Of a DNA stretch of 46,591 nt, positions 25,316-46,591 are shown one piece after another. A program made the position numbers and the translations under genes. The notes beneath the pieces were generated by a model. The model was not told the origin of the DNA. It ran no database searches and was given only the letters and a program-made list of their open reading frames with translations. The stretch lies in assembly GCA_017459225.1 (NCBI GenBank), contig JAFUDL010000537.1, forward strand, positions 1 to 46,591, read 5' to 3'. Every line of letters begins with the position of its first letter. The first letter of the stretch is position 1. Source of the DNA: Kiritimatiellia bacterium. Its GTDB lineage: Bacteria > Verrucomicrobiota > Kiritimatiellia > RFP12 > UBA1067.

Positions 25316-25822
25316 ATGGAAAAAAAGAAAGTACAGATTCTTGCACCGCTTGTGGCGGTGGTGTGTTTGCTTGCTTTCGTGGCTTTTGAGGGCTGCGAAA
25401 GGAAGCCAGATGAGTCTGTGCTGCAAGGCAGCGGCGGCAATGCCAGCAACCAGGTGTATGTGTCGCGCACCGAGGACCCCGCCTACAGCAAGGCGCTTAA
25501 GGATCAAGTTGCGCAGCAGAAGCGCACGGCGATGGCCCTTGCGAAGATCAAGCGGCAGATGGACGATCTGAAGGAGCGTGCGCGTGCGAAGCTGGGCAAG
25601 GACGCCACGGAGGAGCAGATCAAGGCCGAACTGGACGGCAACCCCGCGAAGTACGCGGGATGGAAGCTACTTGTCGACGCGTACGCGAAAGCGAACGCGA
25701 AGATGGAGAAAGAGTTGGCTGATGTGCGCGGCATAGTGCGGCGACGCATCGAAAAGGAGGCGGCGGACCAAAAGGCCGTGGCCGAGGGGAAGGCGACGGC
25801 GGTGCCCGTTGCCTCTAAATGA
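25316..25822 (+). CDS. Small coiled-coil lipoprotein, function unknown
   Basis: The start is moved to ATG 25316 (MEKKKVQILAPLVAVVCLLAFVAFEGC, lipobox-like). The rest is Lys/Ala/Glu-rich helical sequence. The stop lies 35 nt before the giant gene start. Confidence 0.6.
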   Translation: MEKKKVQILAPLVAVVCLLAFVAFEGCERKPDESVLQGSGGNASNQVYVSRTEDPAYSKALKDQVAQQKRTAMALAKIKRQMDDLKERARAKLGKDATEEQIKAELDGNPAKYAGWKLLVDAYAKANAKMEKELADVRGIVRRRIEKEAADQKAVAEGKATAVPVASK

Positions 25823-25857
25823 CGGACGGAAGAGATTCAACGGAAGGAAGCGGCAAC

Positions 25858-28800: not shown

Positions 28801-31800
28801 GCCGACCCCAACAAGACATGGCGCCAGTACTATCAGCCTGTGACTGATTTCGACGTCTTCATCCGCAACATGGAGCCTGAGATCGGTCCTGGCGCTGATC
28901 CCTCCACGAACGCGCAGCCTGCCGCGCTCAACGTGCCGTTCAACATCATATGGAACGTGAAGGATGTTGCGGCCGACCAGGCGAACATGACGGTGACATG
29001 GAGCTACAACGGCTCGTCCCAGACCACCACGCAGCCCGTCACCAGCACATACAGCAAGCAGATTCTCTTCACTAGCGCCGGCCACAAGGAGGTCACGCTC
29101 ACGGTGCAGGACAAGGACGGCGGAACCGACACCCGCACCTGGTACTACAAGGTCGATCCTTCGATGGGCCTTGAGATCACGCCTCGCCGTCCGAACACAG
29201 GCGCACTCTCCGCGTTCTCGCAGAAGTACACAGGAGCCGTGGGCATAGGCGCGGGCCGTGTGTGGTCGACGTCAACCGACTATCCAACCCGCGTGAGCAA
29301 CTTCACTCAGTACTGGGACTTCCAGCCTGCCAACGACCTCAACCCGAAGATCTACGCATACGGCTACAAGGTTGGCGACAGGGACAACGGCAGTCTCGGC
29401 CCGGCAGGCAGCCGCGACTACGCAGTCGACAACGCCGGCACATGGTACAACCAGGCCTCCTACTACGGTTCCTACTACACCTACAATCCGGGCAACGGCA
29501 AGGACAGCTACTTCTACTGCTGGCTGTACTTCGACGTTGAGGAGAACAACTCCACCCACCTCAGCGGCACCGTGCAGCCGGAGGTCGGCACATCCACGGG
29601 CGAGAACCGCGTGCAGATGCCTGAGCAGGATGAAGAGGCTACGTCCTATCCGCGTACGATGGTGGAGGCCATCTTCTCCGTCGAACGCGACCCCGAGGAC
29701 AACGTGGGCGACATCAACCAGGACGGCATCCCCGACGTATATGCCGCCAACACCACGTGGAACGGCGGGCGCCTCTTCCAGTTCGCGGGGTACGAACTCG
29801 AAGAGGGCGGAGACCTCATGAACCTCGCAGGGGTGAACGACGATGGCGACTACCTGCCCGCGACAACCGCCAGCGGCGGCGCGCTTGTGGAGAACGTCCA
29901 GAACTGGCCGCGTCTCGGCGGCGATTTCACGGCCATCCTCGAGATCCGCGGCTTCCACAAGGGCCTCAACTTCCGTGCCGACAATGACGGGCTCAACCGC
30001 AACGTGCGTGGAGCCTGGATCTCCATTCCCTCGTTCTCCGAGGCGGAGTCCAACGCAATCGCCCGCGTGAACAACCTCTGGGTTGATGACACCGACGAGG
30101 AAGGCAACGCGATTCGCCGTCTGCCCAACCCGGAGAACGCCGCCGAGGTGGCCAACTGGACCGCGGGCCTCAACAGGGCTGACAGCTGGATCCCCGAGAA
30201 GCGTACCGACCCGACAATGGAGGACACCGACCAGGACGGCTTCCCGGACGGCTATGAGTACTTCTTCTGGTACAGCGCAATGGTTGGCGTGGATGGCATC
30301 GACAATCGTCTGCGCGGCTCCAAGTTCACCATCGACGACATTGCAACGGGCGAGGAGCTGACCCCCGAGGAGATCGCTGCCGCGTTTGATCCGACTGTTG
30401 CCGCCGACGGGAATCCCGACAGGCGCGACACCGACAACGACGGCCTTACCGATCTTGAGGAGTATGCGCTCGGCACCAACCCGATCAACTGGGACACCGA
30501 CGGCGACGGTCTTTCCGACTTGTGGGAGATCATGCGCGGCATGAACCCCGTCAAGGCCGACAGCGCCAACAACGGCGGCATGAACGCCGACGGCGACTTC
30601 ATGGCCTACTGCGAGACCGATCCCGAATATGCCATCGTCAACATCGAAGGACTTGGCGAGTTCGCCATTCCGAACGACGGCGGCAGTTACATCACGATGG
30701 ATGGCGACACGTGGAAGTTCACAGACGGCGTCACCAACGTGAACGCGATCGCGGTGTTCCGCTATGGCAAGCCTGATGCGATCTGCGTGCCGAGAAACCG
30801 CGGCACGGCCGGGCTGCCGCCCCTCTCCGCGACTTCGCTTCTGCTCGAAGGCAACACGAACATCGTCTCCGTCGCCCTCGGCCAGCCCCTCGCGCTCATC
30901 CACGATCAGGTGTACAACCAGTTCGGGTTCGATCCGCGCACAGGCTGGTTCATTAACGACCACGGCTTCCTTGGCAGGCGCTGGGAGCCCAACTCCGTGG
31001 TGGCGGGTTCGAGGTTCTTGAACGGCGCCGGTGAGCCCGTGAACACCAAGGCCTACACGGCGCGCGACGAGTACCTCCTCCTCAAGTACCGCTACGAGGC
31101 GACGCCCGCGATGGAGGGCTGGGACGAAGACGCCGGCGAGGCGTTCGTCTTCTCCAAGGCGGCCGACAAGGCGCTCTGGAACGACAGGACTCAGCGCCAC
31201 CACGAGCGCGTGTTCCGCCGCGGCACCACCAACCCGAACGTTGCCTACGAGGAGCGCGTATGGGTGACGGAGTCCATGAACGGCCAGAACTACGCGAGCG
31301 AGAACCATGGAGCCGACACTGACGGCGACGGCGTGCCGGATGGATGGGAGCTCTACGTAGCCCACAACCCGAACGACAACCGCGCTGCCGACACTGCTGA
31401 CGGAGACAACGACGGCCTCAACCTCGTGAGAGAGTACGCAGGCACAGACTCCTGCAATGCGTACGCGGCGTGCGAGAGCATCTATTCCCAGCATCCTGGC
31501 ATTGCAAGCGGCTGGTTCAACAAGTTCTTCCCGACTGACCCGAACAATGCCGATACCGACGGTGATGGACTGGACGACGGCGAAGAAGGGGCTGCCTGGA
31601 TTGGCACATGGGTGTACGGCAAGTCCACCTCGCTTCAGGGCCATCGCTTCACCTTCATTTATGGCGACCGTGACGGCATGCCGGCTGAAGAATTTGCCGA
31701 TCCCAACAACCGAGAGCTCTGCATCCGCGGCGGCGGCTTGAACCCGTGCACGGTCGATACCGACGGCGACCTCCTGCCTGACGCGTGGGAGAGGCAGTTC

Positions 31801-34800
31801 GCAGGCATCCTCTTCGACGCCTCCGCCTCGCCTGTCGGCGCCGATCGCGACGATGGTGTGATTACGATGATCCGTCGCGGCGATGGTCTTGGAGCCGAAG
31901 GCGCTACGGCAGCAGGATTCTACATCACGGGCGGCATGGACGGCACGTATGGCGCCGATGCATATACGCTTTCCCCAGGAGGTGCGTTCTTCGATGGTTC
32001 GTCGAGAGACCCGCGTACCGGCACAAGGCGCGATTTCGACTTCGACCACGACGGACTCCAGAACTTCCAGGAGTATCTCGTGCAGTCGCTGCGCCATCTC
32101 CGCTTCGACGACAGCGAGACGCCTCTGATGGGCAGCTGGATGCCAGACGGTCCCCAGGGTTCGCGCAAGTTCGTGCGCTTCCTGCCCATGAACATCATGG
32201 ACGGCGACACCTTCTACAAGATCTGCAAGGACAATGGCTTCGCAGCCACTGGAGCCTGGCAGTTCGAATATCTCGGCTATTTCGTGCAGCCGCCCAGGGA
32301 GTGGGACTGGGTGCGCATCAACAACTACACAGAGTTCATGATGAACTATGACGAGTTGGGATATCGCGTGATGCTCATCCCTGCGGCCCTTGACCCGAAC
32401 GGCCAGCGCATGTCTGCTCTCGGCTACCTCACCACCGATCCGCGCAAGTGGGATACAGACTCTGACGGCATGGACGACTTCTACGAGCTGTTCCACGGCC
32501 TGAACCCGCTGCTCGGCAGCGTGCAGGACGGCACGCTTGACTATGACATCATCGGCCAGCAGTACATGGGCATGATCAACCACTGGTATAATGGCTGGAC
32601 GGCCTGGCCGCAGATGCCCTGGAACGGCGAGGAGCCCAAGTTCGACGCAATCGCCTATCCCTGGATGATGGGTGCGCCCGAGGCTGATGCCGACGGCGAT
32701 GGACTGAGGAACAACTCCGAAGCTCTGCTCGTGAACATGACCTCGCCGATGCCCACGCACACCGACCCCACTCCGTTGTGGTACACCGACTCCACCGCCC
32801 TCAACAATGCGAGCTACACAGTCCAGTACTACCAGCTTGATCCATACGCTGACAGCCCAGACTTCATGATGTATCCGTGGTCTTGGTCCGTTGGAAGCGG
32901 CAAGACGATGGAAGGCTCGACGTCGGGCACCTTCATGTACTCCTTCGAGGAGAACGAGGGCTACGACACGGACAACGACCGCATCGCCGACGCCGACGAG
33001 CGTGCTATGACGGGCAATGCCATCTCTGATCCGCTCAAGTTCTCCGATCCCGACCGCCGTCAGGCTCTCTGGTTCCCGGGTTCCGAGTCCGCCGCTGTTT
33101 CGTACTCCGGCTACTTCCACCGTCCGAACGGCGATCAGTACGACGTGCTGCGCCAGTTCACAGTCGAGGCCTGGATCTGCCCCGAGGACCTTGAGCGCGA
33201 GCAGGTGATTCTCGAGCGCGTGGCCAGATACACGTCCTCCACCTATCAGAACAACGAGGCGCAGGTGCGCGCCAACTTCCGCATCGGCATCAAGGCCGAC
33301 GGCCGCGTGTATGGTCTGTTCGACACTTCGGATGCCGTTCCCTCCGGAATTGGTCCTGGTTCGCCAACGGTTGTTGGCACCGTTCCCGAGGCCGGCAAGT
33401 GGCAGCATGTTGCCCTCACCTACGACGGCAAGGAGCTGAAGCTGCATCAGGATGGTCGCGTCTCTGGCATTACCGCGACCTCGCTAGAGCCCGCGAATGG
33501 TCTCGTGGTGCTGCAGCAGGAAGCTGTGATCGGAATGGAGAACTTCCCCGTTCTTGAGAACGGCTACTTCAACCTGCCTTGCGCGTTCGTGCTTGGCGCG
33601 CAGGCCATGGATGAAAAAGCGATCGGCCTCACGCCCGAAACCGAGTGGGCCAGCTACTCGAACTTCTACCAGGGCTATATCGACGAAGTCCGCGTGTGGG
33701 ACGGCGTGCGCTCGCTCAGCGAGATCAAGGAGTCCTACAAGAAGCGCATGAGCTTCGATGACGTTGCCGCGCAGCGCGAAGAGGTGTACAATGCCTGGTT
33801 GAGAGGTGCCACCCGCAACGACAACGACGGCAAGGAGATGCTGCCCGCCGAACTGCTGCAGCACTATGCGTTCCAGGCTCTCCCCGGCGCCGTGAACGCC
33901 ACGGACGTTCTCTGGGAACCCGCTGGATTCACGAAGTGCGTGTTCGACAACGTGCGCGACATGGACGGCGTGCTGCCCGCCGGCACCTTCGAGGTAGGCT
34001 GGTGGAGCGCTCTGCCCGTGCGCAGCACCGTGTACGAGAACTACCGCTGGGTGCCTTGGATCCAGAATACATGCGGTCACCTGCCGTTCATGGACGGCTC
34101 CTGCGCCGACTCGCGCTACTGGAGCGAGTTCTTCGGCGGCACTGCCTCCGCGCAGGAGGTCTATAACGACCGTAATCAGGCGAACACCGACGCCCAGATT
34201 CTGGCCCTTGGCGAGGTCAAGAAGATCCTATTCTCGAACACCGCGCATCCTTATTCAATGTACAACTACAGTTCCGAGCGGTTCTATCACGAATTCTTCC
34301 TCAACTACATGGCGGAGGCCGATTCGAACTTCCAGACGAACAGCACGCTCTATGCGTTCGAGATCCGCAGCGGCTTCGTTGGCACTTCCGACCTCGTTCC
34401 GTTGGGCGGCGCGTTCGCCAAGCGCACAGAACAGATGTGGGATGGCGACGGCGCGGCTGACGCATGGGAGGTCACGGCCGACGGCGACTCTGCCCTTGCC
34501 GACATCGACGGCAACGGAATGCCCGACTGGTGGCAGGAAATTGCGATCGCAAGGTATGGCGCGCCTGAGGACTTCGACTGGGCTTCTCTTGTGAAGTGGC
34601 CCGATGCCTCCGGCACGGAGATGACGGCGCGCGAGGCGTATCTGCGCGACATCGCAAGCGGCATGCTGCCCGGCGGCGTGACGGAGACGGTGTTCGTTGA
34701 CAAGCGCGACACTGACAAGGACGGAATGCCTGACTGGTGGGAGCGTCTCAACGGCATTGCGGATGAGACCGCCTATGGCGACCATGACAACGATCAGCTC

Positions 34801-37800
34801 TCCAACTACGCCGAGTACCTCATTTCCGAGGGCTTCGTCAAGTACGGCTTCCCGGCCGTCAGCCCGATCAAGCCGAACACGTTCGGACAGGGCGTGCCTG
34901 ACTACTTCCTGCGCGTCGGCTCGCTCTACCTCGGCCAGATGTTTGCCGACGGCGACATGATCAGCGACATCTGGGAAGACCAGTTCGGCGTAGACGTGGC
35001 CTCGCGCGGCCTGTGGGACGCCCATAAGGACGCCGATGACGACGGATGGAGTAACTGGGCAGAGTACCAGGCCGGAACGCGTCCGGATCTCGAGGCCATT
35101 CTTGGCCCTGATGGCTCCACGCTTTCCGAGTACCCGGTGCCCGTGATCGAGGCGAGCGTGGTGTACAACGGAAAGAAGGACTTCTCGAGCGCGGTTGTCG
35201 TGCAGGCTTGGTCGCAGTCCAACAGGGGCGACAAGCAGATGACGGGAATGCCAGACGCTTCCTGGACGATTCCTGCGCCGGGTGCGGCGGTCGAGAAGAC
35301 GCATGTCTTGGGCTCCAACAGAGGCCGAGTGGTCAACTTCAGCCTTGGCCCGGGAGCAGTCGAGCCTGGAAGCGTTGAGATCCGCTTCAAGGACCTCAAC
35401 TCCCAATGGCGTTGGCAGGGCGAGTACCATGCCGAAGAGATGGTGCGCGACTGGAGAAACCGCTTCAACGACAGGAAGCTTGAAGGCACTGACGAATTCG
35501 GCGAGATGCTGGTCGATGGCGTAAAGGTGGGCGACATCAACTACGTCACCGGCAGCGTAACGATCGACTTTGGAGTGGACGATCTTCAGAACCAGTGGCC
35601 GTTCCTCGTGGCGATGGACGATCAGCACGCGGTCTGGGAGGTTCTCGACCTCAAGAACTCCTATGTGATGGTCAGCTGGAGAACCCAGAAGGTCAACGTG
35701 GGCAATTCGGGCAGGTTCTACCTCTCCTGGTCCGACGAGAACGCCGTCAACGGCGGTGGCGATAACAACAATGGCGGTGGCAACGACAACAGTGCGGCCG
35801 GTCTCACGAAGTACGGCCATCTCCGCGAGGGCAAGAACATGTTCATCGCCTTTGCCGACATGGACGGCAACGGCGTGTGGACGCCAGGCGAGCCTCTCGG
35901 CGTCGCGGCCGACGTTGACGTGGGCTGGTCTTCGGCCTCGTTCTCGGTGGAGCTCACGGACGTCGCGCCGCAGATGGCGCGCATGAACATCTCCGGCCTT
36001 ACTGCTGCGGCAGACTTCGGCGCGGCGGATGCGCTTACCGACCGCAGCGCGACTGTAAACGGATACTACTATTCCAACCAGTCTCTGCAGACGGCATTCC
36101 GCATTCTGCAGACCGAAGACGGCGACGACAATGGTCTTGGTGGCGGAACGGATGTAGGGGGTACTCAGGCCGAGGGCAGGCCTGCCGCCAACGCAACGAG
36201 CCGAATCCGCGTGATCCGCACGGCCGTCAACGGCGAACTGGGAGTTGGCGACGTGCTGTACAACGGAGTGGTGCTTGACCGCGAGATCTATCTCGGCGGC
36301 CACCCGATGCTGACCGAAGCGGACCTTGTGGCCGATGGCCTCCTCGACCTCGACTGGGGCACGCTCACCGCTGCCTGGCAGTCCACGCACAACGGTTCTG
36401 CCATCACCACCAGTCTCACTAACGCCACGTACCGTGTGCTCTACGGCAACGGTTCCGCGGAGAAGTGGACGTTTGACTCGTTCGCCGCGGTCACGTTTGT
36501 GAACGCATACGAATACGGACGTACGCAGACGGCCGCAGTGCCGGTGGCGCCCAAGGGCACAACTCAAGGCGCCACGGTTACGTTCAAGTGGCGTCACGAG
36601 GCACTTGACGCGAACGGCTACAAGATCAAGGACTACCCGGCGTTCCGCCTGCAGGTGCTTGACAGCTCCGACACGGTGGTGTACGATTCCGGCAACAGGC
36701 GTGCGCCTGCCCGCAACTCGCAGGGCGTGTACAGCTGGACGGCTCCGCTCTACGACGGAATGGTCACCGCAAAGGGCCATGTGTTCTCCTCAAAGCAGAG
36801 CTACAAGTGGCGCGTCTCGATGCTCGACGCCAAGTTCACCAGTCCGAACTGGGCTACGCAGGAGTTCCGCGTTGAGGCCTCCGGCATGATGAACGATGGT
36901 CGCCGTCTTGGCGCAATCGCCGCGAACGTGAGGTACTTCGGTCCGATCTTGGACAAGGTCTCCAATAAGGCCTCTAACATCCAGAACCTCATCCACGTGC
37001 AGGCGTTCACCTCGCCCGACTTCTCCGGCGTGCCTGTGTCGGAGGGCTGGGTGTCCAACGTGACTGATCTCGCATCGCAGAGCGTCGAGGGCGTCAATGC
37101 CGTAACGCTTGCGGTTCCTGCTGGCACCTACTACCTCTGCGCGTACATCGACACGAACGGCAACTTCAAGCGCGACAGCTGGGAGAGCTGGGGCTACGCC
37201 AACGGCATCGGCGGCAGCGATCCCGATGTGTACAAGCCGGCAAAGGTCGTTATTGAGGAGCCCAGCTCCGCCGTGCCCTGCGTGACGATCTTCATCGAGG
37301 ACTGCGACACCGACCAGGACGGCTTCCCGGATGCGTGGGAGTACGTGACCAACGGTTCGCTTGCCACCCAGGGTTCCGCAGGCGGAAACACTTTCTTCAC
37401 GAAGGTCAATCCGAACCTGCTCGCGACGGTCCAGGCCTACAGCAACCTCGGTCTTGCCCAGCTCGCAACGGGCAGCGACTATGTGGTGCCCAGGCTCATG
37501 AGCGTGCTCTCCGGCGATGACGCCGCCAGCCTCGCGATGGCCTATCTGCTGAGCGGCGGAACGAATCCTGACGATCTCGCGCCAGAGATGGAGGTGAAGG
37601 TCGATTCGTTCAGCACCGAGGGCGGAATGAAGCTCATCATCTCCTGCGAAACGAAGCCAGTGACGGGCGGAAGGCTGCTGGCCGCCGTTCCTGATCCCGA
37701 GTTCGAGATCGTGCTCCTCTCGAAGAAGGCGCTCTCCGACGAGTCCTGGACCGAGACCGTTGCAGGAAAGGTTACGGTGCCCGCGAACGGCAAGGTGGAC

Positions 37801-37881
37801 GTTTCCACAGAGCTTCTCAACCTCACGGTGAAGGCCCGCAAGGAAGCTGGCGACCAGTTCTTCAAGATCAAGATCCGCTAG
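25858..37881 (+). CDS. Giant (4,007 aa) secreted multidomain protein: PKD/Ig-like modules, at least 16 thrombospondin type-3-like calcium motifs, one LamG domain
   Basis: The likely start is ATG 25858 ([27 protein letters not shown]), preceded by GGAAGGAAG. PKD-like blocks occur near 28360-28430 and 29068-29130. DxDxDG/TSP3 motifs run from 29707 to 33015 and from 34498 to 35090, with others near 35850 and 37298. A LamG block lies at about 33050-33750 (ALWFPG...[12 protein letters not shown]...[13 protein letters not shown]). It ends in a tandem TAGTAG stop. Confidence 0.9.
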   Translation: [4007 protein letters not shown]

Positions 37882-37942: not shown

Positions 37943-39160
37943 ATGAAGAAAGCGATTCAGAAGGTCCTCGTAGTAAACTGTGGTTCTTCGTCCCTCAAGT
38001 TCCAGCTCTTCGACATGAAGGGCGAGACCATGCTCTGCAAGGGGCTGGTGGAGCGCATCGGCATAGCCGGGTCGCGGCTCGTCTACACCAAGACGGGCTG
38101 CGACAAGGTCGTACGCGAGGTGGCGATGAAGAACCACGTGGAGGCCATTGCGCAGGTGATGGCGGTGCTGTGCGATCCGCAGTGCGGCGTGGTAAAGAGC
38201 CTTGGCGAGATCGACGCCATCGGCCACCGCGTGGTGCATGGTGGCGACAAGTTCTCCGCTCCCGCGAAGATCACCGCCGCCGCGAAGGCGCTCATTCGCA
38301 AATGCGTGCCGCTTGCGCCTCTCCACAACCCGGCGAACCTTCAGGGCATCGAGGCTTGCGAGAAGGCGGCCAAGGGCGTTCCCAACGTGGGCGTGTTCGA
38401 CACCGCCTTCCACCAGACCATGCCCGGATGCGCCTATCAGTATGCGCTGCCGCGCAAGGTGGCGAAGAAGTTCGGCATCCGCAAGTACGGTTTCCACGGC
38501 ACTTCGCACAAGTTCATCACGCAGGCCGCTGCGGCGTGGCTGAAGAAGCCGCTGAAGAAGGTCAATCTCGTCACATGCCATCTCGGCAACGGATCGTCTC
38601 TTGCCGCAGTGAAGAACGGCGAGTGCATCGACACAACGATGGGCCTCACGCCGCTTGACGGGCTTATCATGGGCACGCGTTCCGGAACGATCGATCCAGG
38701 CGTTCTGCTCTTCCTCGGCAAGCAGGGCTACACCTTCGACCAGCTCGACCGTCTGCTCAACAAGGAGAGCGGCTTCCAGGGCCTCGCCGGCGCACAGGGC
38801 GGCGACTCGCGCGACGTGGTGGCCAAGGCGGAGAAGGGCGACATTGACGCGGTGGAGGCGCTTGAGGCGTTCGGCCACCGCACGGCGAGGTACATCGGCG
38901 GCTACAATACGCTCATTGGCGGAGCCGATGCCATCGTGATGGCGGGCGGCATCGGCGAGAATGCCGCCGAGCTGCGCGCGCAGATCGTGAAGCGCCTTGG
39001 CGCGCTCGGCGTGAAGCTAGACCCCAAGGCCAATCTCAAGGTGCGCTTCGGCGCGTCAGGCGTGATATCCACCAAGGACTCGAAGATCCCCGTGATCGTC
39101 ATCCCCACGAACGAGGAACTGATGATCGCCCGCGAGACCGTTGCCGTGCTGAAGGGATAG
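37943..39160 (+). CDS. ackA: Acetate kinase
   Basis: It has KVLVVNCGSSSLKFQLFD, AIGHRVVHGG, VFDTAFHQTMP, YGFHGTSH and IPTNEELMIA, over the full 405-aa length. Confidence 0.95.
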   Translation: MKKAIQKVLVVNCGSSSLKFQLFDMKGETMLCKGLVERIGIAGSRLVYTKTGCDKVVREVAMKNHVEAIAQVMAVLCDPQCGVVKSLGEIDAIGHRVVHGGDKFSAPAKITAAAKALIRKCVPLAPLHNPANLQGIEACEKAAKGVPNVGVFDTAFHQTMPGCAYQYALPRKVAKKFGIRKYGFHGTSHKFITQAAAAWLKKPLKKVNLVTCHLGNGSSLAAVKNGECIDTTMGLTPLDGLIMGTRSGTIDPGVLLFLGKQGYTFDQLDRLLNKESGFQGLAGAQGGDSRDVVAKAEKGDIDAVEALEAFGHRTARYIGGYNTLIGGADAIVMAGGIGENAAELRAQIVKRLGALGVKLDPKANLKVRFGASGVISTKDSKIPVIVIPTNEELMIARETVAVLKG

Positions 39161-39171
39161 TTCGCCTGGAA

Positions 39172-39215
39172 TGTAGAAACTATAAACAGAAAACTCTAAA
39201 CCAGAAACAAGAAGC
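39172..39215 (+). repeat. Tandem heptamer array NNNAAAC in the ackA-pta gap
   Basis: It reads tgtagaaac tataaac agaaaac tctaaac cagaaac aagaagc, ending 5 nt before the pta ATG. Confidence 0.75.
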
Positions 39216-39220
39216 GTAGA

Positions 39221-40258
39221 ATGAAGGCGATTGAGAAAATCATAGAGAAGGCATCCGCCCTTAAAGGTACGATAGTGTTGCCTGAGGGCATGGACGCCCG
39301 CGTGATAACCGCAGCATGCAGCTGCGTTGATCGCGGCATCTGCACGCCGATCGTGCTTGGCACCCCGCAGGAGATTGCTGAGGCCGAGGCGAAGGCCGGC
39401 CTCTCGCTAGTTGAGCGCAACATCCGCACGATCGACTACACGCAGGGCGACACCGAGCTTGAAGCCGCGTATCTCGAGGCGTGGAACGCCAAGGAGGCGC
39501 GCAAGCCTGCCGAGAAGCAGAAGATCATCGACATTGAGACGGCGCAGAAGACGCTTCGCACGAAGCGCATCTACTTCGGCGGAATGATGGTGCGCCTTGG
39601 GCGCGTGAACGGCCTTGTGGCTGGCTCGATCGCCTCTACTGGAGACATGCTGCGCGCGGCGTTCCACACGCTCGGCACGCAGAAGGGCGTGAAGACGGCG
39701 TCCAGCTGCTTCATCATGGACCTCAAGGAACCAACGGCGAGCGGCGACAGCGTGCTCGCGTTCGGCGACTGCGCCGTGATTCCCAACCCCACTGCGGAGC
39801 AGCTTGTTGACATTGGCCTTGCGAGCGCGCAGACATACCGCGACCTCACCGGCAACGAACCGCGCGTGGCGTTTCTCAGCTTCTCCACGAAGGGCTCCGC
39901 AGCGGGCGATCTCGTCGAGAAGGTGCAGAAGGCCGTGGAGCTGGCGCGTCCGGTCTTCGCGGAGAAGGGCATCAATATGGACGGCGAGATGCAGTTCGAC
40001 GCCGCGATCGTTCCCTCCGTTGGACAGCTCAAGAATCCCAAGGGCGAGATACAGGGCAATGCCAACGTGTTCATCTTCCCGGACCTCCAGGCCGGCAACA
40101 TCGGCTACAAGATTGCGCAGCGCCTTGGCGGCGCGACGGCGATCGGGCCTAATCTGCAGGGCCTTGCGAAGGCCATGAACGACCTTAGCCGCGGATGCAG
40201 CGCAGAGGACATTGTGGGCACGATCTGCGTGACGCTTCTGCAGTCCACTACAAAGTGA
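39221..40258 (+). CDS. pta: Phosphate acetyltransferase (short PTA_PTB form)
   Basis: It reads TIVLPEGMDARVITAA...PIVLG...AFLSFSTKGSA...ANVFIFPDLQAGNIGYKIAQRLGGA. It lies immediately downstream of ackA. Confidence 0.85.
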   Translation: MKAIEKIIEKASALKGTIVLPEGMDARVITAACSCVDRGICTPIVLGTPQEIAEAEAKAGLSLVERNIRTIDYTQGDTELEAAYLEAWNAKEARKPAEKQKIIDIETAQKTLRTKRIYFGGMMVRLGRVNGLVAGSIASTGDMLRAAFHTLGTQKGVKTASSCFIMDLKEPTASGDSVLAFGDCAVIPNPTAEQLVDIGLASAQTYRDLTGNEPRVAFLSFSTKGSAAGDLVEKVQKAVELARPVFAEKGINMDGEMQFDAAIVPSVGQLKNPKGEIQGNANVFIFPDLQAGNIGYKIAQRLGGATAIGPNLQGLAKAMNDLSRGCSAEDIVGTICVTLLQSTTK

Positions 40259-40283
40259 GGCATGGAAACAGGGTTGGCTTGTC

Positions 40284-41282
40284 ATGACGGATGAAAAGAA
40301 GATAGCGCGTGCGCGGCAGGTGTTCGACGCGGAGATCGCGGGGCTTGAGAGGACCCGTGATTCCTTGGGTGCGTCGTTCGTCGCCACCGTGGATCTTCTC
40401 AACGAGACGCTCGACGCGGGCGGGCTTGTGGTGATGACAGGCGTGGGCAAGAGTCTGCAGGTGGCCGAGAAGACGAGCGCGATCTTCGCCTCCACTGGCA
40501 CGCGCTCGATCGTGCTCAATCCAGTGCAGGCGATGCACGGCGACCTTGGAATGGTGAGTTCGCGCGACGTGCTTCTGGCGCTCTCCTTCTCCGGCGAGAG
40601 CGACGAGCTGCTGCGCCTGGTGCCGGCCATTCGGCGCCATGGGCTTAAGATCGTGGCGCTCACGGGAAGGAGCGATTCGTCGCTTGCGCGCCTGAGCGAC
40701 ATCGTGCTCGAGATTCCGTGCGGACCCGAGGCGTGTCCCTTCGGCATGGCGCCCACCACCTCCGCCACCGCCACGATGGCGATGGGCGATGCGCTTGCGA
40801 TGACGATGCTCGAGGCGCGCCGCTTCAACAAGGAGAGCTATGCGCTCAACCATCCCGCCGGCGCGATCGGGCGCGCGCTCGTGCTGCGCGTCTCCGACGT
40901 GATGCGCACCGGCGAGAGAGTGGCCGTGGTCTCGCCCGAGACTCCGGTTCTCGACACGCTTCTCGCGATGACGAAGGCACAGGGCGGCAGCGCTGTGGTG
41001 GCCGATGCCGAGGGAAGGCTCGTGGGCATCTTCACCGACGGCGACTTCCGCCGTGCGTTTGCCGCAGGGAGCGTCGACGGCCAGTCTGCGCTGGGACTTT
41101 CCGATCCCGTCTCGAAGCACATGACGCGCAATCCGCTCTTCGTCAACGCCGATGCATACGCCGCCGAGCTGCTGCGCATCTTCGAAAAGCGCCGCATCGA
41201 CGACCTTCCGGTGTGCGATGTCGACGGAAAAGTTCTTGGGCTTGTCGACATTCAGGATTTGCCCAAACTAAAGGTTTTATGA
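40284..41282 (+). CDS. kpsF: Arabinose-5-phosphate isomerase (SIS domain plus CBS pair), KpsF/GutQ family
   Basis: It has the SIS motif VVMTGVGKSLQVAEKTSAIFASTG, then LALSFSGESDE, then two CBS units at the C-terminus (LRVSDVMRTG..., VSKHMTRNPLFV...). Confidence 0.9.
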   Translation: MTDEKKIARARQVFDAEIAGLERTRDSLGASFVATVDLLNETLDAGGLVVMTGVGKSLQVAEKTSAIFASTGTRSIVLNPVQAMHGDLGMVSSRDVLLALSFSGESDELLRLVPAIRRHGLKIVALTGRSDSSLARLSDIVLEIPCGPEACPFGMAPTTSATATMAMGDALAMTMLEARRFNKESYALNHPAGAIGRALVLRVSDVMRTGERVAVVSPETPVLDTLLAMTKAQGGSAVVADAEGRLVGIFTDGDFRRAFAAGSVDGQSALGLSDPVSKHMTRNPLFVNADAYAAELLRIFEKRRIDDLPVCDVDGKVLGLVDIQDLPKLKVL

Positions 41283-41318
41283 TACAATGTATTCAGTCAA
41301 CCAAAAGAGGAGATAACA

Positions 41319-42038
41319 ATGAAGCTTAAAACAATCGCATTCCTCACGCTCGCAGCCGCGTGCGCGTTTTCAGTCTCGGCTCAGTCGATGCGCCGTCGCG
41401 GTGCAGCTGCTAGCACAGAAACGACCAATGCCCGTGACTCCTACGTTTCGATCGACATCCCCGCCCGCCCGGGTGGCACCTGTCTCGCTAGCGCCCCCAA
41501 CCTCCAGGCTAACGGCAAGCTTCTCCCTCCGCTCGGCGGACGTCCGCGCCAGTGGATTGTGCTTGAGACTAAGTACACTACAATGGCAAAGTGGCAGGAC
41601 GAGCTCACATTCACCTGGCATGTGCTTCTCGACTCCTCGAAGGCCAAGGAGAAGGATCCGCGCAATCCTCCAGCGCCCTATTCCTACTACACCGCGCAGG
41701 TGCGCTACGTCGACATCAAGAAGGGCAGCCACATGGCGAGCGTCTGCCTGCCGCCCAACGTGCTCGAGCGCTTCGGCGAGCCCTGCACCGTCACGCTGAT
41801 CATCACGAACAAGGACGGCGAACAGCTCGCGATGCACACCGAGAACCAGGACAGGAACGCCGCCTCTGCCGCGCAGGGAGCCAACGGCAAGTGGTGGGAG
41901 AACGACAAGTTCATGAGCTGGCAGAGGACGGTGAACGGCGAGCAGAAGAACCAGGTGGAGCGCCGTCAGGGGCTGGTGGATCGTTCAAAGACGCCGTTCT
42001 GGCTCGTCAACAACGCCGACTACGAACTGGTGCAGTAG
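41319..42038 (+). CDS. Secreted hypothetical protein at the head of the pilus-like cluster (position of Amuc_1102-type proteins)
   Basis: It has the signal peptide MKLKTIAFLTLAAACAFSVSAQ and a strong AGGAG ribosome-binding site. I recognise no motif. The assignment rests on synteny only. Confidence 0.6.
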   Translation: MKLKTIAFLTLAAACAFSVSAQSMRRRGAAASTETTNARDSYVSIDIPARPGGTCLASAPNLQANGKLLPPLGGRPRQWIVLETKYTTMAKWQDELTFTWHVLLDSSKAKEKDPRNPPAPYSYYTAQVRYVDIKKGSHMASVCLPPNVLERFGEPCTVTLIITNKDGEQLAMHTENQDRNAASAAQGANGKWWENDKFMSWQRTVNGEQKNQVERRQGLVDRSKTPFWLVNNADYELVQ

Positions 42039-42087
42039 CCAGTGCCTTCTCAAAGCTTTCAAGTACGCACACTTAGAAGACTGAACC

Positions 42088-43812
42088 ATGTCTCGAATCC
42101 TCACATTAAACATCGGCGCCTCGAAGGCGGTTCTTGCCGAGTATTCGCTCGGCGGTAAGGGCCGCCTCACGCTGACGGGCTACGGCAGCGGCGAACTGCC
42201 CGCAGTCGACGTCAACGACATAGGCTCTCTTGGCGCCACTCTGCCGCAGGTGCTTCGCCAGATAATGCGAGAGAAGGACATCCATCCCGCGCCGCTCGTC
42301 GTGTCGCTCGGCGGCCAAATGGTGTTCCCGCGCTTCGCGAAGTGTCCACCCGTAGGTGAGCTCGAGCAGCAGGTTCGCTATGAGATCGAGGAGAACGTGC
42401 CGTTCCCGATCGACGAGATCGTGAGCGACTACCAGTTCCTCGGCAACATGGCCGACGGCGACAAGGCCGTGATGATCGTTGCGGCGAAGGTGGAGGCCGT
42501 TCGCGCGGTGACCGACGCCGTTCGCGCGGCAGGCCTCAAGCCCACCGTTGTCGACGTCTCGCCCGTCGCGATCTGCAACGCGCTCAAGGTGGCGTATCCG
42601 CAGCTCGAAGGCTGCTCTGTTGTGCTTGACGTTGGCTCGAAGACCACGAACCTCATAATCCTCGAGGGCGAGAAGGTCTACAACCGTTCGATTCCGATCG
42701 CCGGCAACACCATCACCAAGGACATCGCACAGCAGTTCGGCTGCTCCTTCGAGGAGGCAGAGCAGGTGAAGCTTGAGCGCGGCTATGTGGCGCTCGGTGG
42801 CGTGACGGAGGATGAGGACGAGGTTACCGACCGCATCTCGAAGATAATCCGCACTGTGCTCACGCGTCTGCACGCGGAGATATCGCGCTCCATCAACTTC
42901 TACCGCTCGCAGCAGGGCGGCAGCGCTCCAACGCGCCTCTTCCTCACGGGCGGCACCGCTCGCCTTCCGCAGCTCGACCAGTTCTTCATGGACGCGCTGC
43001 AGGTCGACGTGCAGTACCTCAATCCGTTCGGGTCCGTGGCGTTCGGCTCAAAGATCAACAAGGCCCAGTTTGAGGATGATGCATTCGCTCTTACGGAAAG
43101 CGTGGGCCTTGCGCTGCGCGGCGGCGACAATGCGTGGATATCGATAAACCTCCTTCCGCCGGAGCTCGTGAACGAAGCGCGCGCGATGAAGCGCATTCCG
43201 TTCCTCGTGGCGGGCGGTGTGGCGTTTCTCGCCGCTCTTGGCGTGGGCTGGATGCTTGAGAGCGGCGGAGTGGAGAAGGCAAAGGCAAAGCTCGAACGCG
43301 TGGAGAGCCGCAACCGGTCGTTGAAGTCGCTCGATACGAAGCTCAAGGCAGAGCAGAAGGCAGAGCAGGAGGTTCGCGGCAAGTGCGACGAGTTCCAGCA
43401 GCTGCTGATGAGCCGTTCGGCGGCGCTGCGCCGTCTGCAGGACGTGCGCCGCAGCCTTCTGGACGGCATGTGGATCACGGAGTGGAAGGCGCTTCCGGCG
43501 GAAAAGGACAAGCCCGAGGCCCGCGAGGCCGTGATGGTGACTGTGCGTGGCTGGCGCGACGCGATGGAGAAGGCCGAGGCCAAGTGGGCTGAGGACAACG
43601 GCGGCAAGGGCTCCACCGTGGCCGAGATTGTCATGTCCAAGATCAAGCGCAGCGCGGAGTTCGTGCCGGAGAGCGTTAAGATCGACAAGCAGAGAAGCGT
43701 GGAGGGATGCCTTACCGAGTTCACGCTGCTAATGCAATTGGCACCGGCCCCCAGCATCGTGCCCGAGAACGAGAAGGAGAAGGGCCGTAAAGGAAAGGGG
43801 ACGAAGAAATGA
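42088..43812 (+). CDS. PilM-like actin-fold ATPase fused to a PilN-like transmembrane/coiled-coil module
   Basis: The N-terminal 350 aa or so look like PilM/FtsA (ILTLNIGASKAVLAEY, VVDVSPVAICNA, VLDVGSKTTNLIIL, LFLTGGTARLPQL). A transmembrane segment (IPFLVAGGVAFLAALGVGWML) and a coiled coil follow. Confidence 0.75.
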   Translation: MSRILTLNIGASKAVLAEYSLGGKGRLTLTGYGSGELPAVDVNDIGSLGATLPQVLRQIMREKDIHPAPLVVSLGGQMVFPRFAKCPPVGELEQQVRYEIEENVPFPIDEIVSDYQFLGNMADGDKAVMIVAAKVEAVRAVTDAVRAAGLKPTVVDVSPVAICNALKVAYPQLEGCSVVLDVGSKTTNLIILEGEKVYNRSIPIAGNTITKDIAQQFGCSFEEAEQVKLERGYVALGGVTEDEDEVTDRISKIIRTVLTRLHAEISRSINFYRSQQGGSAPTRLFLTGGTARLPQLDQFFMDALQVDVQYLNPFGSVAFGSKINKAQFEDDAFALTESVGLALRGGDNAWISINLLPPELVNEARAMKRIPFLVAGGVAFLAALGVGWMLESGGVEKAKAKLERVESRNRSLKSLDTKLKAEQKAEQEVRGKCDEFQQLLMSRSAALRRLQDVRRSLLDGMWITEWKALPAEKDKPEAREAVMVTVRGWRDAMEKAEAKWAEDNGGKGSTVAEIVMSKIKRSAEFVPESVKIDKQRSVEGCLTEFTLLMQLAPAPSIVPENEKEKGRKGKGTKK

Positions 43813-44939
43813 GTCTCTCCAGGCAGCAGATGATAGGCGCCGTGGGCGCGGGCATTTTCGTGGTGTGCGCAGGCGGTCTTGGCTGGATGCTCTATTCGGC
43901 GTGGTCCGACAAGGGCGAAGTCGAGGAGAGGGTGACCGAGGAGACAGATGCGTTCAGGCGCTTCAACGAGTCTGCGATCTATCCATCCAAGGCGTCGATC
44001 GACAGCGTAAAGTCAAACGAGACGAGCTATGCCCAGTGGTATGATTCGGCCGTGACGCTTGCGGCGCGCGGCGACAGGGCCATGCAGATAGAATCGGCCT
44101 CGAAGTTCAAGCAGCTGCTTGAACGCGAGGTGCGCCGCGTGCGCGAACTTCCCGGCGGCGCCGGCGGAAAGATCTCTGCGCCCACATTCCTCTTCGGTTT
44201 CGAGCAGTATCTCGGCGAAGGCGGAGTGCTGCCGAAGGAGGCGGATGTGCCTCGCCTTGCGGTGCAGCTTGGATCGATATGCCGCCTTGCCGACGCTTTC
44301 GCCGAGGCTGGCGTGTACGAGGTGAAGTCCGTCACGCGCCTTGAGGAGAAGTCCGACAAGTCGGAAAGAGAGGATTCCGGCTCGTCGTCTTCCGCCAAGA
44401 ACAAGAAGCAGGCTGCGAACAAGGAGGCGGAGGACGCGCCCAAGATGACGAAGGAGTCGTATGCGTTCGAGATTCTGGCGCGTCCGACGGCCATCGTCCA
44501 GGTGTTGAACAAGCTCACGGCGTGCGAACGGTTTGTTGTGGTGCGCAACCTCTCGTTCAGGCAGTCGGTTGATTCGATTGTGGACCACATCGCAGCGGCG
44601 AAGAAGGCCGAGGATGCCAAGAACGCGCCAAGCACCGGCTCACGTCGTCGTCGCGGCGCTGCCGCGGCGCCGGCTGACGCAAATCCCGAAGCGCTGGCGC
44701 TCGCGAGCAGAATCGTGGCCGATCCCGAGGGCGACGAGCCGCTAACGGTGTCGTTCACGCTCGACGTGTACGACTTCGGCCGTCCCGCGCAGGCGTCCGC
44801 CGCGCAGGAGACCAAGGACGCCGATGCGGCTCCCGCAGACGCCGGCAAGGCGGATTCCGCGAAACCGTCTGCCGCGGATGCCAAGGCCGAGGAGAAGAAG
44901 CCCGCCGAGAAGAAGGCGGAGAAGGGGGATTTTGAATGA
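43809..44939 (+). CDS. Amuc_1100-like pilus-associated membrane-anchored protein (PilO position)
   Basis: The start overlaps the upstream stop as ATGA. It has an N-terminal transmembrane segment. Blocks such as FGFEQY, LAVQLGSICRLADAFAEAGV and FVVVRNLSFRQ parallel my recollection of Akkermansia Amuc_1100. The C-terminal tail is Ala/Lys/Glu-rich. Confidence 0.55.
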   Translation: MSLSRQQMIGAVGAGIFVVCAGGLGWMLYSAWSDKGEVEERVTEETDAFRRFNESAIYPSKASIDSVKSNETSYAQWYDSAVTLAARGDRAMQIESASKFKQLLEREVRRVRELPGGAGGKISAPTFLFGFEQYLGEGGVLPKEADVPRLAVQLGSICRLADAFAEAGVYEVKSVTRLEEKSDKSEREDSGSSSSAKNKKQAANKEAEDAPKMTKESYAFEILARPTAIVQVLNKLTACERFVVVRNLSFRQSVDSIVDHIAAAKKAEDAKNAPSTGSRRRRGAAAAPADANPEALALASRIVADPEGDEPLTVSFTLDVYDFGRPAQASAAQETKDADAAPADAGKADSAKPSAADAKAEEKKPAEKKAEKGDFE

Positions 44940-46051
44940 GCGCCTCCAAGCAGAATTTCTTTGCGGCGCATTGGGACTGGCTTGTGGCTGCGGTGGGCTT
45001 CGCCGTGCTCGCCGCCGCTGCTGCGTTGTACGCGATGTCCCTCGGCGATTCGCCCGAGGCCAGCGCCAACGCCTATGAGGCGCAGCTCAAGACGATGACG
45101 CCTTCCCACGAAGGCGTGCCAAGCGCAAACCTTGACTTGCTCCAGAAGGCGCTGCGCCAGATGAAGACGCCGCCGCGTCTTGACGCGGTCAACGCCAAGA
45201 AGGCGAACTTCCTCGCGAGCGAGGGACGCGTCTTCTGCCAGCAGGGCGACAGCGACCCCAAGGCCAAGAAGGGCTGCGGCAAGCCTATTCCCGCAGAGGC
45301 CGAGCTGTGCCCCTTCTGCGGCGTGAAGCAGCACGTGGTGAAGATCGAGGCCGATGCAGACCATGACGGCATGTCGAACGAATGGGAGCTCAAGTACGGT
45401 CTGAACCCGAACGATCCGAGCGACGCAAAGAAGGATCTCGACGGCGACGGCTTCACCAACTACGAGGAGTTCCTAGCGGGGACCGATCCTAGGGACAAGG
45501 AGTCGCATCCCGATTATGCCGACTCGCTCGTCGTCTCGGCTCCGCTCAAGCACACCTCCCTGCCGTTCTACTTCTACGCCTACAGCAGAGTGCGCAATGG
45601 CTATCGCTTCACGTTCCGCCGCAAGGATGCGAAGAACAAGTTCGACAGCACTCTCTCCGCGCTCTTGAACGACGAGATCCGCTCGCCCGACGGCAAGATG
45701 AAGACCGGGTGGAAGGTGACTGCGTTCGAGCAGAAGGAAGAACGCCGCACGATTCCTGGCTCGAAGGATCCCAACCTCAAGCGCGCAGTGGATGTTTCCA
45801 CTGTGGAGCTCAAGAGGGAGAAGGACGGCAAGACCCTCACGGTCGCCCTCCGCGTGCCGGACATCGCAGTGGAGACCGAAACGGAGCTCACCTACAAGCG
45901 TGGCACGGAACGCAAGTTCGTCGTCACCAAGGGCACTGAATTCGAGCTCAACGGCAGCAAATACCGCGTGGAAAAGCTTGCCGCAGTTGAGAACGGATGC
46001 GAAGTCACCATTGTCGATCTGAAAACAAAAAAAGAAAAAATCGTACGTTGA
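44936..46051 (+). CDS. Membrane-anchored zinc-ribbon plus TSP3-motif protein with PilP-like beta C-terminus (Amuc_1099 position)
   Basis: The start is an ATGA overlap. It has the transmembrane segment WDWLVAAVGFAVLAAAAALYA and the zinc ribbon CQQGDSDPKAKKGCGKPIPAEAELCPFCG. It also carries DADHDGMSNEWELKYGLNPNDPSDAKKDLDGDGFTNYEEFLAGTDP. Confidence 0.6.
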   Translation: MSASKQNFFAAHWDWLVAAVGFAVLAAAAALYAMSLGDSPEASANAYEAQLKTMTPSHEGVPSANLDLLQKALRQMKTPPRLDAVNAKKANFLASEGRVFCQQGDSDPKAKKGCGKPIPAEAELCPFCGVKQHVVKIEADADHDGMSNEWELKYGLNPNDPSDAKKDLDGDGFTNYEEFLAGTDPRDKESHPDYADSLVVSAPLKHTSLPFYFYAYSRVRNGYRFTFRRKDAKNKFDSTLSALLNDEIRSPDGKMKTGWKVTAFEQKEERRTIPGSKDPNLKRAVDVSTVELKREKDGKTLTVALRVPDIAVETETELTYKRGTERKFVVTKGTEFELNGSKYRVEKLAAVENGCEVTIVDLKTKKEKIVR

Positions 46052-46109
46052 TGCTTGATTCATCAGCCAAAATGGGGTATCATAGTAAAACCTTTCAAGG
46101 AGCAATTCG

Positions 46110-46591
46110 ATGAGAGCCAATAAAACACTCGCCGCATTGGGCGCCACATTCCTTTCTCTCGCTTTCACAGCGAGCGTTGTCGCGGATGATCTAGATGATC
46201 TTCTTAACGACGACCCCAAACCGCCAAAAAAGGCAGAGATTGCGAAGCCGGTTGAACCCAACAATTCTGCGCCTGTCGCGAAGCAAGCTGAGCCTGCTCC
46301 CGCAGAGCCCGCGAAGCCCGCCGTGGCCAAGCCCGATGTGAAGCCTGTGCCCGCGAAGCCTGTTGCGCCTGAGGCGAAACCCGCTCCTGCACCTGCGAAG
46401 CCCGCAGAGCCCGCGATTGACGATCTTGATCCTCTCAACGACGCTCCTGCAAAGGCCGCTCCTGCCGCAAAGCCTGAGGTGAAGCCTGCGGAACCTGTGC
46501 CCGAGGTGAAGCCTGCTGAGCCGCCGCATCCCGAAGCGGAGCTCATCAGCGACTTGATGGAGACGGAGAAGCTGCGCCGCCAGTCGCTCGA
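46110..46591 (+). CDS. Secreted protein with Pro/Ala/Lys-rich linker, 3-prime end cut by window (position expected for the cluster secretin)
   Basis: This ORF is absent from the track because no stop is reached. AAGGAG (46097-46102) lies 7 nt before ATG 46110. I translated 160 codons by hand without a stop: MRANKTLAALGATFLSLAFTASVVA, then (K/E)P(A/V)-rich repeats. The secretin call rests on synteny only. Confidence 0.6.
   Translation, partial: MRANKTLAALGATFLSLAFTASVVADDLDDLLNDDPKPPKKAEIAKPVEPNNSAPVAKQAEPAPAEPAKPAVAKPDVKPVPAKPVAPEAKPAPAPAKPAEPAIDDLDPLNDAPAKAAPAAKPEVKPAEPVPEVKPAEPPHPEAELISDLMETEKLRRQSL

Follow-up and report, generated by a model that had tools for sequence, protein, structure and literature searches.

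Which envelope machine is encoded by a run of five genes in which a PilM-PilN fusion protein, a homologue of Amuc_1100 and the beginning of a probable secretin stand together, and no gene for a pilin, a motor ATPase or a platform protein accompanies them? This question is raised by positions 41319 to 46591 at the 3' end of contig JAFUDL010000537.1 of a Kiritimatiellia bacterium (assembly GCA_017459225.1); the whole stretch of 46,591 nucleotides that was analysed is called the window in the following. The window is an entire contig (C424) of a 3.68-Mb metagenome-assembled genome (MAG) of 564 contigs and 89.9% completeness. The cluster is a gene-for-gene homologue of the Amuc_1102-Amuc_1098 cluster of Akkermansia muciniphila, which carries the name MUL2 (reportedly going back to Davey et al. 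2023). We consider it highly likely that the five genes form one operon, from which a type IV pilus-like machine of this kind receives its envelope-spanning scaffold and its pore in the outer membrane. The observed basis of this reading is that all five proteins have homologues in that cluster, that PilM and PilN are fused, that the modelled core of the third protein is of PilO type, and that the gene order is conserved. The genes and their parts are listed below; signal peptides and membrane anchors were read from the sequence by eye.

41319-42038, plus strand: 239-residue exported beta-sandwich protein, Amuc_1102 (MUL2A) homologue (profile; AlphaFold2 model against 7DSZ)
42088-43812, plus strand: whole open reading frame (ORF) of the 574-residue PilM-PilN fusion
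42088-43122, plus strand: PilM part of the fusion (actin-like ATPase fold), residues 1-345 (Pfam, TIGR01175, NF045709)
43123-43812, plus strand: PilN part of the fusion, residues 346-574 (profile match to 3jc8_Na)
43809-44939, plus strand: 376-residue bitopic protein, Amuc_1100 homologue with a predicted PilO-type core (NF038287, profile, AlphaFold2 model)
44936-46051, plus strand: 371-residue bitopic protein of the Amuc_1099 family (NF042425, TSP3_bac)
46110-46591, plus strand: N-terminal 160 residues of a probable Amuc_1098-type secretin, ORF open at the 3' side (46110-46589+) and cut by the contig end (orthologues)

A preliminary description of the window, made from the sequence alone, had reported five co-directional genes with two ATGA overlaps, and the ORFs are exactly as given there, all on the plus strand, with overlaps that can be read directly at the junctions of the second with the third and of the third with the fourth gene. 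It had also taken the last gene to be cut by the window; the gene is truncated at that position, and since the window is the whole contig, the truncation is due to the assembly.

Homology to the Amuc_1098-1102 cluster of Akkermansia

In A. muciniphila, the Amuc_1098-1102 cluster was defined by Ottman et al. (2017; PMC5332112), whose account of the cluster reports that all its proteins were enriched at least 10-fold in one membrane fraction. This set includes the PilM-like protein Amuc_1101, which fits a co-fractionation of the whole complex. The relevant section of a 2023 review terms the cluster one for type IV pili and identifies Amuc_1098 as PilQ (PMC10688800), and a 2026 article in ISME J designates Amuc_1099-1102 as the MUL2 locus and shows its synteny with the secretin gene, coaE and rho (PMC13174399). 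In the passages of that article on distribution, the cluster is reported mainly within Verrucomicrobiales, and Kiritimatiellia are not mentioned there. The passages on function in two articles connect MUL2 with the uptake of mucin and with attachment (PMC13174399; PMC12418764), so that the earlier statement that the role of the machine is undefined even in Akkermansia is dated. The system itself has been described before; for the Kiritimatiellia lineage no printed report was found, and no paper joining Kiritimatiell* with a name of the cluster was among the matches listed in the literature searched.

As an Akkermansia-type reference we used the locus of a genome (G233) whose Amuc_1100-family score lies above the cut-off and whose 317-residue protein matches the solved chain. 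This locus encodes proteins of 242, 612, 317, 337 and 907 residues, followed by coaE and rho, and the latter two genes also follow the secretin gene in close relatives of the window. The two clusters agree in gene content and in order (1102-1101-1100-1099-1098), each lies on a single strand, both lack a pilin, ATPase or platform gene, and every protein of the cluster in the window, the fifth through its orthologues, is homologous to its counterpart by family model, profile or structure, which bears out the assignment to the Amuc_1098-1102 type in the preliminary description. A PilM-PilN fusion is present in both, and the 612-residue protein aligns with that of the window throughout. In pairwise blastp comparisons, the first protein is 20% identical to its counterpart (E 0.002), the second 30% (E 2e-63) and the fourth 30% to the 337-residue protein (E 2.5e-11); with the secretin of a relative (G008) taken for the fifth gene, the identity to the 907-residue protein is 25% (E 4e-66).

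The two clusters also differ. The host belongs to the Kiritimatiellia of gut and rumen and not to Akkermansia, identities are only 20-30%, and the curated cut-off is passed by the Amuc_1099 model alone. The 371-residue protein has a four-cysteine knuckle that is missing from the Akkermansia-type protein, charged stretches are inserted into the 376-residue protein, whose tail is long and acidic/Lys-rich, the secretin is extended at its N-terminal side by a Pro/Ala/Lys-rich linker of about 130 residues, and the genes ackA, pta and kpsF lie upstream here and not in the Akkermansia-type locus. The cluster is a divergent, complete-looking member of a described system, and no new kind of machine emerges from it.

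The PilM-PilN fusion protein

Residues 1-345 of the 574-residue protein match the PilM models TIGR01175 (171.6 bits, cut-off 133) and Pfam PilM_2 (148 bits, cut-off 27), and it is the sole PilM_2 match in the genome. The family model NF045709 (Amuc_1101_fam) matches the protein with E 2.5e-130 and 436.2 bits, which is under its cut-off of 650 bits. The PilN part that follows is composed of an 'ISINLLPP' motif (43138-43161), a membrane helix (approximately 43189-43257), a coiled coil and a small alpha/beta domain. A profile built from 25 C-terminal halves of the family found PilN of the type IVa pilus machine of Myxococcus xanthus (3jc8_Na) with E 6.7e-8, the alignment covering residues 3-125 of PilN and beginning at 'IRINLLP'; an unrelated match came second (E 0.018). 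The fusion claimed in the preliminary description is therefore supported in both halves, PilM by models above their cut-offs and PilN by this profile match. The 25 orthologues show little or no variation at I8, L10 and P12 of the PilN segment, which are residues 353, 355 and 357 of the whole protein, and INLLP is presumably the PilM-binding peptide of PilN, for which the literature search found no paper. When the PilN halves were compared with the Amuc_1100-like family by hhalign, the membrane helix alone was aligned (probability 45%). The fusion of PilM and PilN is a family trait.

The Amuc_1100-like protein and its predicted pairing with PilN

The 376-residue protein starts with an N-terminal membrane helix, which is followed by a long coiled coil, a core of two alpha-beta-beta units and the acidic/Lys-rich tail. 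It matches the family model NF038287 (Amuc_1100_fam) with E 9.7e-26 and 90.9 bits, under the cut-off of 180. In the PDB, a profile of 25 orthologues found the Amuc_1100 structures 6LAD, 6KNY and 6LAF over nearly the full length (E 2.8e-13 to 1.8e-9), and beyond the Amuc_1100 chains nothing under E 0.3. With the single sequence, phmmer found no match in the PDB at E<=1, and pairwise blastp with the 317-residue protein of G233 gave E 4.1; because both fail, the relation to Amuc_1100 is visible only to profiles and structures. The preliminary description had identified the protein by sequence blocks that it matched to Amuc_1100. These blocks correspond loosely to the real protein and the proposed BLASTP comparison gave nothing significant, while the homology itself is established by profile and structure.

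The AlphaFold2 model of the protein (predicted local distance difference test, pLDDT, 74.6) was compared with solved structures by two independent methods. In Foldseek, all 10 matches at E<=0.001 were Amuc_1100 chains, and the sole further matches of high probability were the PilO structures 3jc8_Oa (E 7e-3, probability 0.99), 2RJZ (probability 0.98) and 5UVR (probability 0.97). VIA-align, which does not depend on Foldseek, gave Z 16.1 for 6lad_A (176 residues, 3.4 Å), and for PilO Z 9.4 (2rjz_B; 92 residues, 2.6 Å), 8.6 (3jc8_Oa) and 7.8 (5UVR). Lower values were reached by parts of type II secretion systems (T2SS), namely EpsM (Z 6.4), the C-terminal domain of PulL (6.1), EpsL (6.0) and XcpY (5.9), and the remaining rows were coiled coils aligned on the long N-terminal helix. 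By its model, the 376-residue Amuc_1100 homologue has a predicted PilO-type core. This likeness of the core is not new for Amuc_1100, and among the papers listed by the literature searches none names Amuc_1100 together with PilO or GspM.

A complex was modelled from the PilN half and residues 1-330 of the 376-residue protein, each with an alignment of 25 rows. The interaction prediction score from aligned errors (ipSAE) was 0.82 (median of 0.71, 0.82 and 0.83) against 0.01 for the best control; of 157 solved complexes 116 attained this mark, and of 215 mismatched pairs 2. At least 97% of the contacts recur between the runs, the partners have a pLDDT of at least 74, and in the predicted interface the two proteins touch along their membrane helices, their coiled coils and a beta-strand of the core. 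The model thus supports binding of the PilN half to the 376-residue protein; since PilN/PilO-like and GspL/GspM pairs are known complexes, this result may reflect the likeness to them.

The T2SS matches bring in a second reading of the locus. In this case, the cluster would encode a type II secretion-like exporter, in which the parts of GspL, GspM, GspC and GspD would fall to the fusion protein, the Amuc_1100-like protein, the Amuc_1099-like protein and the secretin, respectively, and folded proteins such as glycan-degrading enzymes would be pushed from the periplasm to the outside by a short pseudopilus. We regard such an exporter as improbable. GspL likewise joins a cytoplasmic actin-like domain to a periplasmic domain through a membrane helix in one chain, and the Pfam model T2SSL matches weakly in 4 of the 25 members of the fusion family (best E 0.0057), but it has no significant match in the 574-residue protein, in which the PilM models TIGR01175 and PilM_2 pass and the C-terminal half aligns to PilN from the INLLP N-terminus onwards. 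PilO and not GspM is the best structural match of the 376-residue protein outside its own family, by about 3 Z units.

The first and fourth proteins

For the 239-residue protein no Pfam or NCBIfam family was matched. A profile of 25 orthologues had a single match in the PDB, 7DSZ ('Amuc_1102'; E 6.4e-6), and the AlphaFold2 model (pLDDT 80.5) led to the same structure: in Foldseek, all 3 matches at E<=0.001 were chains of 7dsz (E 3.5e-10), and VIA-align gave Z 17.1 over 163 residues with a root-mean-square deviation of 2.5 Å, the next-best matches being generic Ig-like domains with Z <=7.7. By eye and from the alignment of orthologues, the protein has a Sec-type signal peptide, in agreement with the secreted protein proposed in the preliminary description, and no prepilin-type N-terminus; it is therefore not a pilin in the mechanistic sense. 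The wide structural search with the model had no pilin, archaellin or PilP among the matches listed, and in Foldseek the archaellin 9eq7 appeared at E 0.011 amid many beta-sandwich domains scoring equally well or better. For these reasons, the published description as 'archaeal pilin-like' is not confirmed as specific.

The 371-residue protein passes the model NF042425 (Amuc_1099_fam; 94.4 bits, E 9.8e-27, cut-off 50) and Pfam TSP3_bac (38.2 bits, cut-off 25). It is composed of an N-terminal membrane helix, a four-cysteine knuckle, two TSP3-type calcium-binding repeats and a beta-rich C-terminal domain. The preliminary description had called it zinc-ribbon/TSP3/PilP-like. The TSP3 part holds, the zinc ribbon corresponds to weak Pfam matches (E 0.011-0.032) together with four nearly invariant cysteines, and no search supports PilP. 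The cysteines C101, C114, C125 and C128 (45236-45319) are nearly invariant in 24 orthologues from Kiritimatiellia and missing from Akkermansia-type Amuc_1099; they lie in the part predicted to face the periplasm, and a knuckle held by a metal or by disulfides and specific to the lineage may be built from them. Searches of the PDB with the family profile gave weak EF-hand-like matches on the DxDxDG repeats (E >=0.029) and nothing else, and a protein atlas search with the 371-residue protein returned its own family only. The gene sits at the PilP/GspC position in the operon, and because no sequence link to PilP was found, the term 'PilP-like' rests on this place and on the bitopic architecture.

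The truncated fifth gene, a probable secretin gene

The 160 residues encoded by the fifth gene comprise a signal peptide and the Pro/Ala/Lys-rich linker. They are collinear with the first approximately 170 residues of the secretins of relatives, which have about 880-1310 residues, and are 54% identical to that of G008 (67% over the last 24 residues). In three relatives tested, the orthologous fifth gene encodes 988-1129 residues, and all three proteins match Pfam Secretin (115-130 bits) and the model NF042912 (Amuc_1098_fam; E 1e-118 to 1e-130, 396-434 bits, under the cut-off of 750). The G008 secretin aligns to the 907-residue Akkermansia-type protein only from its own residue 174 onwards. 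Loci of relatives were fetched for comparison, 84 in number including 3 duplicates (contigs fetched twice). All five genes were found in 56 of them, in every case collinear and on one strand, and a secretin gene follows the fourth gene in all 58 loci with at least 3300 nt beyond it. The expectation that the downstream gene is a secretin therefore holds in the relatives.

TIGR02517 (GspD) scored higher on the orthologous secretins than TIGR02515 (PilQ), with 129.4 against 106.9 bits for G008 and 165 against 132.7 bits for a more distant relative (G023), all under the cut-offs (124-165 bits for GspD, cut-off 351.35); this would agree with the exporter described above. The same proteins weakly match HofQ DNA-uptake porin models. 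PilMNOPQ-type modules with a secretin serve as a DNA-uptake route in several bacteria, and the cluster might accordingly be read as part of a competence pilus, like PilMNOPQ in Thermus and Neisseria, instead of a device for glycan acquisition or adhesion. We consider this very unlikely: the HofQ matches (81.6 bits against a cut-off of 554) are far under the cut-off and cover the shared C-terminal secretin core only, the sole functional data on the family, in the articles cited above, tie the cluster to mucin use, and nothing further speaks for DNA uptake, no search having been aimed at other competence genes.

The assembly contains further secretins. A tblastn search with the G008 secretin returned only paralogues of 23-39% identity (C265, C477, C62, C261 and C497). 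The contig C261 begins inside a secretin ORF and was considered as continuation of the fifth gene, but was rejected with 23-29% identity to the secretin of the relatives as compared with 50-80% for the other genes. This secretin (C261:1-2465) is GspD-like (168 bits) and has an unusual tail, about 280 residues long, in which a Lys/Glu-rich coiled coil precedes PAPAKPA repeats; at the DNA level these repeats match the linker region of the fifth gene of the cluster, and the next ORF encodes a membrane protein that is STAS/MlaE-like by eye. In one relative (L038; G014:C89, 8550-11992) the secretin frame is split into ORFs of 253 and 904 residues that overlap in different frames, which is a frameshift or an assembly error.

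Comparison with type IV pilus and type II secretion machines

The type IVa pilus machine (PilMNOPQ; 3JC8, with PilO also in 2RJZ and 5UVR) resembles the cluster in several respects. PilM passes the curated models, the PilN part aligns from its INLLP N-terminus through the membrane helix and the coiled coil, the third protein is modelled with the PilO fold in the same bitopic coiled-coil layout and is predicted to pair in the PilN/PilO manner, and the probable secretin comes last in an operon that lies apart from pilin and motor genes. In contrast to that machine, PilM and PilN are one chain, the PilO-like protein is approximately twice as long and has extra helices, the fourth protein is membrane-anchored with TSP3 repeats and no detectable similarity to PilP, a gene for an exported beta-sandwich protein heads the operon, and the Pfam models PilN, PilO and PilP have no match.

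With the GspL-GspM-GspC-GspD assembly of T2SS, the cluster shares a single-chain protein that, like GspL, spans the membrane by one helix between an actin-like domain in the cytoplasm and a ferredoxin-like one in the periplasm, the core fold of the 376-residue protein in the periplasmic domains of GspM and GspL (Z about 6), and a membrane-anchored fourth protein, which on its architecture as read from the sequence would be nearer to GspC than to the lipoprotein PilP. It differs in that no T2SS family model reaches its cut-off, genes for pseudopilins, GspE and GspF are missing from the cluster, and PilM, PilN and PilO are better matches than the corresponding T2SS parts.

The remaining parts of a pilus machine were looked for in the whole genome, as the preliminary description had proposed. 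Above their cut-offs were three PilT/PilU-family ATPases (C548, C305 and C497) and 15 N-terminal motifs of prepilins, with clusters of them on C123 and C483. The specific cut-offs were not reached by five PilB/GspE-like ATPases (best 595 against 675.65 bits) and three GspF/PilC-like platform proteins (best 314 against 424), and a TadA-like ATPase is encoded elsewhere in the genome. None of the whole-genome matches for T2SSE ATPases, T2SSF platforms and prepilin motifs lies on the contig of the window, in line with the earlier statement that the cluster has no pilin, ATPase or platform gene. In model organisms, pilMNOPQ operons normally stand apart from pilin and motor genes; a scaffold with its secretin apart from the motors is thus the normal layout and no sign of an orphan machine. 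The genome search also bears on the exporter. T2SS do not use PilT-family retraction ATPases, of which the genome has three above the cut-off, and it has a separate GspL-like/GspM-like pair on C354. Moreover, the NCBI family name is 'pilus complex', and the sections of the Akkermansia articles concerned speak of type IV pili-like structures.

The pair on C354 (1-2193) consists of a 490-residue protein of GspL-like layout, with a weak PilN-type segment at residues 388-439, and a T2SSM/PilO-like protein, which follows it and is cut by the contig end; the genome thus has another alignment pair beside that of the window, and this one is of type II secretion character. On C127 (1940-5425), a 674-residue secretin passes the type III secretion model SctC (357 against 238 bits), an indication that the genome encodes type III secretion or a related system.

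Proposed mechanism and function

In the type IV pilus-like machine that we favour, a cytoplasmic PilM domain would be fused to PilN, whose own N-terminal 'INLLP' motif would be kept in cis. The membrane helix, coiled coil and core of PilN are predicted to pair with the PilO-fold Amuc_1100-like protein as the alignment heterodimer of the inner membrane. The Amuc_1099-like bitopic protein, at the place of PilP/GspC, would probably link this heterodimer to the Amuc_1098-like secretin, the putative outer-membrane channel, and the exported Amuc_1102-like beta-sandwich protein would be a family-specific fifth part. Motor ATPases, platform and prepilins would be supplied from elsewhere in the genome, the link to particular ones being presumptive, and the scaffold would serve a pilus-like fibre. 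Solely by analogy with MUL2 of A. muciniphila, its role is probably attachment to and/or uptake of complex glycans.

Several observations weigh against this assignment. Three of the four family-specific NCBIfam scores are lower than the curated equivalog cut-offs (436 against 650, 90.9 against 180 and 396-434 against 750 bits), pairwise identity to the Akkermansia-type proteins is 20-30%, and the pairwise comparison of the 376-residue protein with its G233 counterpart is insignificant. The Pfam PilN model matches none of the 25 members of the fusion family. Pfam PilO has no match to the 376-residue protein and elsewhere in the genome sub-threshold matches only, and Pfam PilP has none, this model being silent in all control genomes too. 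The profile of the 371-residue family finds neither a PilP nor a GspC structure in the PDB. The secretin domain of the fifth gene is absent from the window and from the whole assembly and is deduced from orthologues, and in the 89.9%-complete genome no prepilin peptidase (Peptidase_A24) was found. The glycan-uptake role would be carried over from what the cited articles say of A. muciniphila. Finally, because the fusion has the architecture of GspL and the orthologous secretins slightly favour GspD over PilQ models (129 against 107 bits for G008, both under the cut-off), a role in secretion instead of a pilus keeps the small probability given above.

A farther-reaching interpretation, which we put forward tentatively and hold to be rather doubtful, is that the module is an ancient, phylum-wide glycan-reeling device, composed of the scaffold, the giant secretin and retraction ATPases encoded elsewhere, and not a pilus for adhesion or motility, and that gut Kiritimatiellia use it as Akkermansia uses MUL2. 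As a corollary, the Amuc_1100 family would be inner-membrane-anchored equivalents of PilO. If this holds true, proteins of the family should co-fractionate with the secretin complex and would not be outer-membrane or pilus-surface proteins, as they are labelled in the Akkermansia literature. Already the structural reading of the fusion, the PilO fold and the predicted pairing predicts an inner-membrane location for Amuc_1100-type proteins. This is of interest since, among the host-active proteins of Akkermansia, Amuc_1100 has been studied most and its cluster is tied to mucin foraging.

Distribution and expression

The Amuc_1100 family was detected in 29 of the 31 genomes of the genus and order, in none of them above the cut-off, and in 226 of 301 genomes across the phylum, 18 of them above it. 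Two families of the same class are mostly without a match (0 of 9 and 2 of 6 genomes positive). One genome (G029) has a match in the search of genus and order (E 4.3e-11) and none in that of the phylum, so that the tallies of genomes without a match include false negatives. A search of named genomes with the alignment of the 574-residue protein and four orthologues yielded 237 relatives, and the best 80 of these are almost all Kiritimatiellae/Kiritimatiellia MAGs from gut, rumen or faeces, some with vague or plainly wrong bin labels. Taking the window, its relatives and the sample of 301 genomes together, the module belongs to the standard equipment of Kiritimatiellia in gut and rumen.

Near-identical sequence is present in metatranscriptome runs of cattle and sheep gut. 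In four runs of four studies, contigs of RNA libraries with at least 95% identity cover parts of all five genes and bridge the junctions between the 239- and 574-residue proteins (41747-42421) and between the 574- and 376-residue proteins (43550-44039); the lack of contigs over 41056-41269 in these four runs is not interpretable. These findings are consistent with expression of the cluster, with the limits that DNA is possible in such libraries and that the contigs show neither strand nor level.

Genomic setting

Directly upstream of the cluster and in the same orientation lie ackA, pta and kpsF (37943-41282, plus strand), as named in the preliminary description and all above curated cut-offs; only 36 bases separate kpsF from the first gene of the cluster. 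The three genes are found upstream in 59 (ackA), 66 (pta) and 68 (kpsF) of the 84 fetched loci, but neither in the more distant locus of G023 nor in the Akkermansia-type locus. The G+C content is 57-64% throughout the region, without a compositional break. Neither promoter-like sites (3 against 1.1 ± 1.0 expected) nor terminator-like sites (5 against 7.3 ± 2.8 expected) are clearly beyond chance, the promoter-like site upstream of the first gene (41259-41288) is a consensus match only, and a 30-base pattern search across the fetched loci gave no match.

Just before ackA, a giant ORF of 4020 residues (25819-37881, plus strand) with a signal-peptide-like N-terminus was found. Its matches are to Laminin_G_3 (52 bits), to the bacterial TSP3 repeat in three copies (27 bits) and, weakly, to PKD-like domains, and the DxDxDG type of calcium-binding repeat is common to this protein and the 371-residue protein of the cluster.

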